Made by a program: the position numbers. From assembly GCF_041248615.1 (NCBI RefSeq), contig NZ_CP158427.1: a stretch of DNA of 64,000 nucleotides. The stretch is one strand, 5' to 3'. Of this stretch, positions 54,001 through 57,000 are shown piece by piece; the first letter of the stretch is position 1; each line of letters starts with the position of its first letter. The stretch comes from Escherichia coli (GTDB lineage Bacteria > Pseudomonadota > Gammaproteobacteria > Enterobacterales > Enterobacteriaceae).

Positions 54001-57000
54001 TCTGTGTCCGCAGGTACGGGTCGCAGATATCGTCCAGCTGAACGGGAATATCCGGCCACGATCACGCCAGTGGTGGCAGTTATTCAGGATGGTGTCTCAG
54101 TGGCATGTTGATGTGGTTATCGTTGAGCGGCGTTCGTTCAGTATTGTTGCAGCAGTAGAGCTGGATGATGCCAGCCATTTACGACCTGAACGCAGACGCC
54201 GGGATATTCTTCTGGAAGAGGTTCTGAGGCAGGCTGGTATTCCGTTGCTCAGAAGCCACGATGCCAGAAAACTGCTGCAGATGACCGGAGAATGGCTGAA
54301 TACAACAGGGGCTGCCCAGCAGTCACCGGAACATCGTAGCTGACGCCTTCGCGTTGCTCAGTTGTCCAACCCCGGAAACGGGAAAAAGCAAGTTTTCCCC
54401 GCTCCCGGCGTTTCCATAACTGAAAACCATACTATTTCACAGTTTAAATCACATTAAACGACAGTAATCCCCGTTGATTTGTGCGCCAACACAGATCTTC
54501 GTCACAATTCTCAAGTCGCTGATTTCAAAAAACTGTAGTATCCTCTGCGAAACGATCCCTGTTTGAGTATTGAGGAGGCGAGATGTCGCAGACAGAAAAT
54601 GCAGTGACTTCCTCATTGAGTCAAAAGCGGTTTGTGCGCAGAGGTAAGCCTATGACTGACTCTGAGAAACAAATGGCCGCTGTTGCAAGAAAACGTCTTA
54701 CACACAAAGAGATAAAAGTTTTTGTCAAAAATCCTCTGAAAGATCTCATGGTTGAGTACTGCGAGAGAGAGGGGATAACACAGGCTCAGTTCGTTGAGAA
54801 AATCATCAAAGATGAACTGCAGAGACTGGATATACTAAAGTAAAGACTTTACTTTGTGGCGTAGCATGCTAGATTACTGATCGTTTAAGGAATTTTGTGG
54901 CTGGCCACGCCGTAAGGTGGCAAGGAACTGGTTCTGATGTGGATTTACAGGAGCCAGAAAAGCAAAAACCCCGATAATCTTCTTCAACTTTGGCGAGTAC
55001 GAAAAGATTACCGGGGCCCACTTAAACCGTATAGCCAACAATTCAGCTATGCGGGGAGTATAGTTATATGCCCGGAAAAGTTCAAGACTTCTTTCTGTGC
55101 TCGCTCCTTCTGCGCATTGTAAGTGCAGGATGGTGTGACTGATCTTCACCAAACGTATTACCGCCAGGTAAAGAACCCGAATCCGGTGTTCACTCCCCGT
55201 GAAGGTGCCGGAACGCTGAAGTTCTGCGAAAAACTGATGGAAAAGGCGGTGGGCTTCACCTCCCGTTTTGATTTCGCCATTCATGTGGCGCATGCCCGTT
55301 CCCGTGGTCTGCGTCGGCGCATGCCACCGGTGCTGCGTCGACGGGCTATTGATGCGCTGCTGCAGGGGCTGTGTTTCCACTATGACCCGCTGGCCAACCG
55401 CGTCCAGTGTTCCATCACCACACTGGCCATTGAGTGCGGACTGGCGACAGAGTCCGGTGCAGGAAAACTCTCCATCACCCGTGCCACCCGGGCCCTGACG
55501 TTCCTGTCAGAGCTGGGACTGATTACCTACCAGACGGAATATGACCCGCTTATCGGGTGCTACATTCCGACCGACATCACGTTCACACTGGCTCTGTTTG
55601 CTGCCCTTGATGTGTCTGAGGATGCAGTGGCAGCTGCGCGCCGCAGTCGTGTTGAATGGGAAAACAAACAGCGCAAAAAGCAGGGGCTGGATACCCTGGG
55701 TATGGATGAGCTGATAGCGAAAGCCTGGCGTTTTGTGCGTGAGCGTTTCCGCAGTTACCAGACAGAGCTTAAGTCCCGTGGAATAAAACGTGCCCGTGCG
55801 CGTCGTGATGCGAACAGAGAACGTCAGGATATCGTCACCCTGGTGAAACGGCAGCTGACGCGTGAAATCTCGGAAGGACGCTTCACTGCTAATGGTGAGG
55901 CGGTAAAACGCGAAGTGGAGCGTCGTGTGAAGGAGCGCATGATTCTGTCACGTAACCGCAATTACAGCCGGCTGGCCACAGCTTCTCCCTGAAAGTGATC
56001 TCCTCAGAATAATCCGGCCTGCGCCGGAGGCATCCGCACGCCTGAAGCCCGCCGGTGCACAAAAAAACAGCGTCGCATGCAAAAAACAATCTCATCATCC
56101 ACCTTCTGGAGCATCCGATTCCCCCTGTTTTTAATACAAAATACGCCTCAGCGACGGGGAATTTTGCTTATCCACATTTAACTGCAAGGGACTTCCCCAT
56201 AAGGTTACAACCGTTCATGTCATAAAGCGCCAGCCGCCAGTCTTACAGGGTGCAATGTATCTTTTAAACACCTGTTTATATCTCCTTTAAACTACTTAAT
56301 TACATTCATTTAAAAAGAAAACCTATTCACTGCCTGTCCTGTGGACAGACAGATATGCACCTCCCACCGCAAGCGGCGGGCCCCGACCGGAGTCGATTTA
56401 GTTACAACACTCAAACACAACCACCAGAAAAACCCAAGTCCAGCGCAGAACTGAAACCACAAAGCCCCTCTCCCATAACTGAAAAGCGGCCCCGCCCCGG
56501 CCCAAAGGGCCGGAACAGAGTCGCTTTTAATTATGAATGTTGTAACTACATCATCATCGCTGTCAGTCTTCTCGCTGGAAGTTCTCAGTACACGCTCGTA
56601 AGCGGCCCTCACGGCCCGCTAACGCGGAGATACGCCCCGACTTCGGGTAAACCCTTGTCGGGACCACTCCGACCGCGCACAGAAGCTCTGTCATAGCTGA
56701 AAGCGGGTATGGTCTGGCAGGGCCGGGGATGGGTAAGGTGAAATCTATCAATCAGTACCGGCTTACGCCGGGCTTCGGCGGTTTTACTCCGGTATCATAT
56801 GCAACAACGGAGTGCCGCCTTCCATGCCGCTGACGCGGCATCTCTAACCTTCACTCTTGACCATGTGAATGACAATCATTATTGTTTGTGTGGTAATGGG
56901 ATAGAAAGTAATGGATAGAAAAAGAACAAAATTAGAGTTGTTATTTGCATTTATAATAAATGCCACCGCAATATATATTGCATTAGCTATATATGATTGT

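Follow-up and report, generated by a model that had tools for sequence, protein, structure and literature searches.

The basic replicons of plasmids R1 and R100 (NR1) serve as the reference for IncFII replication control. In R1 the genes are ordered copB-tap-repA, the promoter PrepA is repressed by CopB, the antisense RNA CopA blocks translation of tap, and translation of repA is coupled to that of tap (PMC5717011; PMC5883639). The 188-bp origin of R1, oriR, includes a consensus DnaA box (PMC5883639). The RepFIIA replicon of R100 (NC_002134) comprises, in order, a DUF2726 gene, repA2 (copB), copA, tap (repA6), repA1, the origin and the repA4 region. According to transposon sequencing, a related F2 plasmid requires copA, repA6, repA1, repA4 and the origin, and the repA4 region is needed for maintenance of pEC958 (PMC4398462). 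In this family, mutations in the CopA loops lead to higher copy number, a higher rate of transfer and stronger resistance (bioRxiv 2020.08.12.248336), and knowledge of the exact allele is thus of practical use in epidemiology.

Analysis of the window, by which we mean the whole 64-kb stretch of DNA studied here, indicated that the region at 54.5-56.85 kb is almost certainly an intact IncFII basic replicon of the R1/R100 family, carried on a conjugative F-type multiresistance plasmid and predicted to be under translational control of the R1/R100 kind (Table 1). All four protein and RNA components (CopA, CopB, Tap and RepA) reach the thresholds of curated families in Rfam, Pfam and NCBIfam, and both the gene order and the circuit fit those published for R1, in agreement with the R1/R100 control architecture assigned in the preliminary description of this DNA. 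The window is 100% identical, in reverse orientation, to positions 24651-88650 of plasmid p14408_1 of E. coli NRZ14408 (NZ_LT599826.1, 137 kb), and this identical RefSeq record annotates the same IncFII replicon parts. At least 197 PLSDB records share the replicon region at 99% identity or more, and about 2 kb of it (54400-56392) is 100% identical in many annotated IncFII plasmids, many of them complete and circular. The module is a standard copy-number-control and replication-origin cassette; its identification is correct yet ordinary, and it is already annotated publicly. Results from this study add to the first account the F2 typing, the presence of a non-R100, R1-matching copB/operator cassette, the right extent of the origin and the numbers that speak against an antisense reading frame. 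No second replicon was found within the 64-kb window.

Table 1. Features of the IncFII replicon and its surroundings (positions are those of the window).
Feature	Position	Strand	Description
F-type leading region	1-16 kb		
oriT and tra operon	16-52 kb		
finO, nuclease gene, hha, DUF2726 gene	between tra operon and replicon		
copB Shine-Dalgarno	54572-54578	+	GAGGAGG
copB (repA2)	54583..54843	+	ATG 54583, TAA 54841-54843; 86 aa; putative transcriptional repressor of the repA promoter
Inverted repeat (candidate CopB operator)	54837..54855		AAAGTAAAG-a-CTTTACTTT; perfect 9-bp arms; spans copB stop codon and candidate PrepA -35
Candidate PrepA	54848..54875	+	-35 TTTACT (54848-54853), 16-nt spacer, -10 TAGATT (54870-54875)
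Antisense ORF	54874..55380	-	168 codons; by-product of repA codon usage and conserved leader
copA	54960..55050	-	antisense RNA of about 91 nt; complementary to CopT, its plus-strand target in the leader of the repA mRNA
tap Shine-Dalgarno	55053-55058	+	GGGGAG; directly 3' of the CopT region
CopA promoter-like site	55057..55085	-	TTGAAC-17-TATACT; inside tap coding sequence, opposite strand
tap (repA6)	55068..55142	+	24-codon leader peptide ORF; the RefSeq record of identical sequence names it tap
Predicted mRNA hairpin	55106..55133	+	3' part of tap; pairs the repA Shine-Dalgarno AGGA (55127-55130)
repA (repA1)	55135..55992	+	GTG start; 285 aa; IncFII replication initiator
Spacer between repA and origin	55993..56150	+	aligns throughout with seven relatives at only about 86% identity
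oriR	56151..56340	+	DnaA box and three 9-mers; exact boundaries presumptive
Conserved downstream part of replicon	56341..56841	+	repA4 region of R100/NR1 by position
Homology break, IS26, IncN-like fragment	right of replicon		

The position proposed earlier for copB was borne out by the open reading frame and by its product, which matches Pfam PF10723 (RepB-RCR_reg; 6.4e-45) and NCBIfam NF010256/PRK13702 ('replication regulatory protein RepA'; 138.8 bits, cut-off 87). The gene lies on the same strand as tap, 225 nt upstream of it, and the exact CopB sequence sits in the UniRef cluster named COPB3_ECOLX. Comparison of eight replicons revealed three CopB types, each with its own sequence over the PrepA -35. 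The 9-bp inverted repeat at this place is present only in the relatives with the same CopB type as the window (L005 and L006), and a different sequence is found there with the other two types. The repeat is hence listed as a candidate CopB operator. The promoter PrepA, whose CopB-repressed counterpart exists in R1 (PMC5717011), was placed by eye, and its putative position matches the consensus at eight of 12 bases, which is under the threshold of the promoter scanner; a sigma-70 consensus scan of 54300-56800 found neither PcopB nor PrepA. The PrepA -10 and everything downstream of it to the end of tap are the same as in R100, and the -35 side falls in a divergent cassette.

The strongest match was that of copA, identified on the minus strand by Rfam RF00042; the score of 106.3 bits is well over the gathering score (60), and the full model is covered (1-92 of 92). 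In the predicted structure, a spacer separates a short stem-loop at the 5' end from a second, long one whose upper part is bulged, and a U-rich tail (UUUUUGCUUUU) comes last, reaching to about 54956. This fold is significantly stable (z = -4.43), none of 200 shuffled sequences folding equally well. The only sigma-70-like match in 54300-56800 is the site listed in Table 1 as promoter-like; its -10 element stops 7 nt short of the CopA 5' end given by the Rfam match, which fits a transcript start near 55050. The full-length family match, the fold and this site together confirm the minus-strand hairpin that had been attributed to CopA at about 54958..55050. The terminator scanner did not report a CopA terminator because the stem and loop exceed its limits. 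UUGGCG is found in the loop of CopT, and a gap of 2-3 nt separates the end of the CopA-CopT duplex from the tap Shine-Dalgarno sequence that follows. Variation among the seven relatives is concentrated in loop II and stem-loop I of CopA; the tap/repA junction, the DnaA box, the 9-mers and the origin are nearly invariant. Two Rfam pseudoknot families, PK-repZ and PK-repBA, also gave plus-strand scores in this region (22.5 and 19.8 bits), far under gathering; these were rejected, as they reflect only a shared CopT-like hairpin and the UUGGCG loop.

Analysis of the leader peptide also upheld the earlier call of a 24-codon tap. Its product matches Pfam PF08048 (RepA1_leader; 1.8e-14) and the TIGR03475 equivalog (60.6 bits, cut-off 35), and the reading frame is intact in all seven relatives. 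RepA matches the TIGR03474 equivalog with 581.5 bits (cut-off 446.9), NF010313 with 618 bits and Pfam PF02387 with 87.7 bits, and its GTG start at 55135 is the one annotated in the identical record. Within the first 246 nt of repA (55135-55380), 24 unique synonymous substitutions were counted against three non-synonymous ones, a ratio indicative of purifying selection on the gene. The tap and repA reading frames overlap by 8 nt, repA being in the +1 frame relative to tap, and the junction is conserved in the seven relatives. The statement that the tap stop codon overlaps the repA start therefore holds for the reading frames and needs correction for the codons themselves: the GTG occupies 55135-55137 and the stop, at 55140-55142, lies just past it. 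The anatomy for translational coupling is thus present, and coupling itself is predicted from it. The hairpin modelled over the repA Shine-Dalgarno sequence is consistent with the published inhibitory structure. Minimum free energy folding of the 125-nt tap/repA junction was not significant (z = -1.05); in the relatives, changes within the hairpin are confined to the loop or preserve a G-U pair.

The same DNA is open on the minus strand over 168 codons, and a real protein encoded there would overlap repA, tap and copA. Such a frame is long, it is open also in R100, L005 and L007, and unnamed ORFs are drawn in this region in the MiniR1-1 paper (PMC5883639). That it is a gene is nevertheless hardly credible. 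In four of the seven close relatives the frame is broken, either by a stop codon or by indels in the CopT loop that shift it, and the substitutions that number 24 synonymous to three non-synonymous in the repA frame become one synonymous to 26 non-synonymous in the antisense frame. Its codons lie exactly opposite those of repA, and only two of the 286 repA codons are TTA, CTA or TCA, the codons that give antisense stops; the minus frame is therefore open by construction. The product has no match in Pfam or NCBIfam, and the exact protein, never produced by any gene caller, is absent from a collection of 15 billion sequences in which RepA of the same DNA occurs on at least 1000 contigs. The view already taken in the preliminary description, that this ORF is not a gene, is thus supported by the broken frames, the substitution ratio and the missing family match.

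Downstream of repA, the spacer that leads to the origin occupies what we take to be the position of the R1/R100 CIS region. The DnaA box reported there earlier was found again as a perfect TTATCCACA at 56168-56176, and none of the eight aligned IncFII replicons departs from it. The window holds two such boxes where 0.44 would be expected, and eight of 100 shuffled sequences contain at least two; a box alone is thus statistically unremarkable, and support for this one comes from its position. Three copies of the 9-mer TCNTTTAAA, at 56260-56268, 56283-56291 and 56306-56314, follow in an exact 23-bp phase. Four matches to this 9-mer exist in the 64 kb, and three of them cluster here within 55 bp. 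The oriR region as a whole is 95-100% identical across the seven relatives.

These results bear on the extent of the module, which had been described as complete from 54583 to 56300. Every element is indeed present. The right edge, however, has to be moved to about 56340 if the origin is meant, or to about 56841 if the conserved replicon is meant, since the third 9-mer shows that an end at 56300 cuts the origin. A clone of 54583-56300 would truncate the origin and leave out the promoter upstream of copB, so that the test proposed at first, in which failure of the cloned fragment to replicate autonomously would count against the module, is unsafe as worded. Within the conserved part beyond the origin, a 113-aa ORF (56355-56696) has no protein family match in Pfam or NCBIfam, and folding of 56560-56700 as DNA revealed no significant structure of the primosome or G-site type (z = -1.34).

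Homology to R100 ends at about 56841-56845, tir and pemIK of R100 are missing on the right side of the window, and IS26 follows about 1 kb further. The module might accordingly be read as a decayed remnant unable to initiate replication, for instance if an IS26-associated rearrangement on the right had removed a needed sequence. This is very unlikely, for the break lies about 500 bp past the origin and after the conserved segment of the repA4 region, tir and pemIK lie outside the basic replicon, and the sequence at 54400-56392 is carried unchanged by many complete circular plasmids. An intact replicon remains the preferred reading.

For the intact replicon, a mode of action can be proposed whose elements are seen in the sequence and whose steps are drawn from the R1/R100 literature (PMC5717011, PMC5883639, bioRxiv 2020.08.12.248336). 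The repA mRNA would be made from two promoters, a constitutive one upstream of copB and PrepA just downstream of copB, the latter being repressed by CopB, whose probable target is the 9-bp inverted repeat that covers the -35. Pairing of the CopA loops with CopT, which directly precedes the ribosome-binding site of tap, would block tap translation. The ribosome-binding site of repA would be buried in the hairpin inside tap and its GTG overlaps the end of tap, so that RepA would be made only when ribosomes translate tap. RepA, the presumed rate-limiting protein, would then bind oriR, which lies about 160 bp downstream, with host DnaA occupying the DnaA box next to it, and the two would open the AT-rich 9-mer region for unidirectional theta replication. 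The distribution of variation among the relatives, high in loop II and stem-loop I of CopA and low at the tap/repA junction and the origin, agrees with this scheme.

A different question is whether this circuit governs the plasmid on which it resides. Plasmid p14408_1 is typed with IncFIA and IncFIB replicons besides IncFII, both of which lie outside the window, and an FII module that is intact yet silent or auxiliary could be imagined, with FIA or FIB governing replication and copy number. We regard this as unlikely. All FII elements are intact and the region is identical to the FII replicons of single-replicon F2:A-:B- plasmids; the apparent purifying selection on repA also speaks against a silent FII. 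Furthermore, in pEC958 (F2:A1:B-) transposon sequencing showed that FII is required for replication and FIA only for partition (PMC4398462).

The value of identifying an FII replicon at this place is chiefly one of annotation, as it locates the replication and copy-control module of a resistance plasmid, predicts its incompatibility type and exposes a spurious 168-codon ORF. Understanding of the IncFII system itself is left unchanged by the module.

Comparison with R100 revealed the same order of genes and the same flanks, with a level of identity that differs strongly between segments. From 54867 (PrepA -10) through CopT/CopA and tap to 55142 the two are 100% identical. RepA of the window and RepA1 of R100 are 98% identical, the origin 97% and the following 500 bp 96%, whereas the spacer between repA and the origin is only 87% identical. 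In contrast, 54617-54866, comprising the body of copB and the PrepA -35, is unrelated DNA in R100 (46% in alignment), and RepA2 of R100 (84 aa) shares 49% amino acid identity with CopB of the window (86 aa). The alignment of copA/CopT suggested in the preliminary description, carried out against R100, thus gave an identical CopA. A 261-bp segment (54877-55137), presumably the one bounded by the IncF replicon-typing primers, is likewise identical to R100. Since R100 has been typed as F2:A-:B- (PMC4398462), the FII allele here is most likely F2, which supplies the typing against IncF alleles that had also been suggested, with R100 as the reference. The MOB-suite labels in PLSDB ('IncFIA' for R100 and 'IncFIC' for the present replicon) were set aside for typing. 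Since CopA is the determinant of incompatibility and copy number and is identical to that of R100, the plasmid is predicted to be incompatible with R100 and with plasmids of the pC15-1a type.

The published architecture and circuit of the R1 basic replicon (copB-copA-tap-repA-oriR1) are the same as found here (PMC5717011; PMC5883639). R1 was compared at the sequence level through the R1-derived primers of MiniR1-1 (PMC5883639) with wild-type bases restored, a comparison that covers short stretches only. Three stretches of the window agree with the primers at every base, namely 54676-54705 in copB, 55253-55275 in repA, and 56147-56174, where the origin has its left edge and the DnaA box; at these three sites R100 is mismatched or, at 54676-54705, has no match. 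The case for an R1-type copB consists of this exact match of 30 nt of primer-derived R1 sequence, which R100 lacks, and of the low CopB identity to R100 RepA2 given above. One genuine mismatch was seen with the R1 repA 5' primer: position 55149 is A in R1 and C in both the window and R100. The R1 repA 3' primer also differs from the window. The repA gene is therefore not simply that of R1.

The presence of both R1-matching and R100-matching segments marks the replicon as an apparent mosaic, with copA and tap of the R100 type and a non-R100 copB and operator that match R1. This state is a common one, as is seen from the 197 or more PLSDB records with at least 99% identity. Mosaic IncFII replicons have been described previously. 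A tentative reading, which we regard as possible rather than probable, is that the module arose by recombination, a copB-plus-operator cassette matching R1 having entered an R100-like F2 replicon, its left breakpoint lying within copB at about 54616 and its right one at the PrepA -10, at about 54867. If repressor and operator are exchanged as a cassette independently of CopA, two IncFII plasmids in one cell could be incompatible by way of their antisense RNAs while neither is repressed by the CopB of the other, and the rescue of copy number during establishment would be affected; this would be a modest refinement at most. Among F2-allele plasmids, pEC_B24 (NC_014384) and pEC_L8 (NC_014385), the latter typed as F2:A1:B- (PMC4398462), are 100% identical to the window over 54400-56392 and carry the same annotation, differing from it only in the flanking cargo and the right-hand junction.

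Spacer 55993-56150 between repA and the origin showed about 86% identity to each of the seven sampled relatives, with the differences being scattered point changes, and its flanks (repA and the origin) showed 92-100% identity to the same relatives; this spacer is either a hypervariable segment or a further mosaic segment. In one relative, L008 (CP088548.1; positions 1-413), copB was found to be removed by an IS1 insertion. L008 keeps tap, repA and the origin, with CopA as the only remaining control, and is a natural IncFII replicon without copB.

Mutation of 'DnaA-box8' in the R1-derived mini-plasmid MiniR1-1 reportedly increased copy number about five-fold (PMC5883639). 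The same mutation also alters a CopB codon, and hence the published interpretation of this copy-number effect may be confounded. Analysis of the 64 kb revealed two perfect DnaA boxes, the origin box at 56168-56176 and one in the leading region, a number compatible with chance.

Comparison with R100 showed that IncFII homology ends at about 56841-56845 and that the tir and pemIK genes of R100 are absent to the right of the replicon. The region up to 64000 contains a low-GC ORF, for which Pfam and NCBIfam searches gave no match despite its RefSeq label, and, after IS26, an IncN-like block. Within the tra operon, the ISEc12 insertion may exert a polar effect on the downstream transfer genes; the plasmid is nonetheless typed conjugative.

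Features identified in the window
Feature	Position	Remarks
TCTTACACA	54697-54705	within copB; counterpart of MiniR1-1 'DnaA-box8'
Second perfect DnaA box TTATCCACA	13406-13414 (-)	leading region
ISEc12 (IS21-family; istA/istB)	31760-34062	in the traF-trbA interval of the F-type tra operon
78-aa ORF	56911-57147	RefSeq 'colicin transporter'
IS26	57885-58589	after 78-aa ORF
Cytosine methyltransferase	58601-60007	IncN-like block
Short restriction-endonuclease ORF	60600-60953	IncN-like block
IS5-family transposase	61037-62005	IncN-like block
kikA-like and H-NS-like genes		IncN-like block
sok	11973-12149	Rfam
traJ 5' UTR	16156-16265	Rfam; FinP on opposite strand
AS-traG	38965-39050	Rfam
AS-traI	47644-47720	Rfam
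AS-pc02	52651-52834	Rfam, 229 bits

R100 is the classical IncFII reference plasmid. The replicon labels that PLSDB supplies from MOB-suite assign R100 (NC_002134) to 'IncFIA' and the FII replicon of NZ_LT599826 to 'IncFIC'; the reported replicon type of R100 is F2:A-:B- (PMC4398462). For FII typing, the MOB-suite labels are to be avoided. Further Rfam matches at gathering level across the 64-kb window (sok, traJ 5' UTR/FinP, AS-traG, AS-traI and AS-pc02) represent RNAs typical of F-like plasmids.
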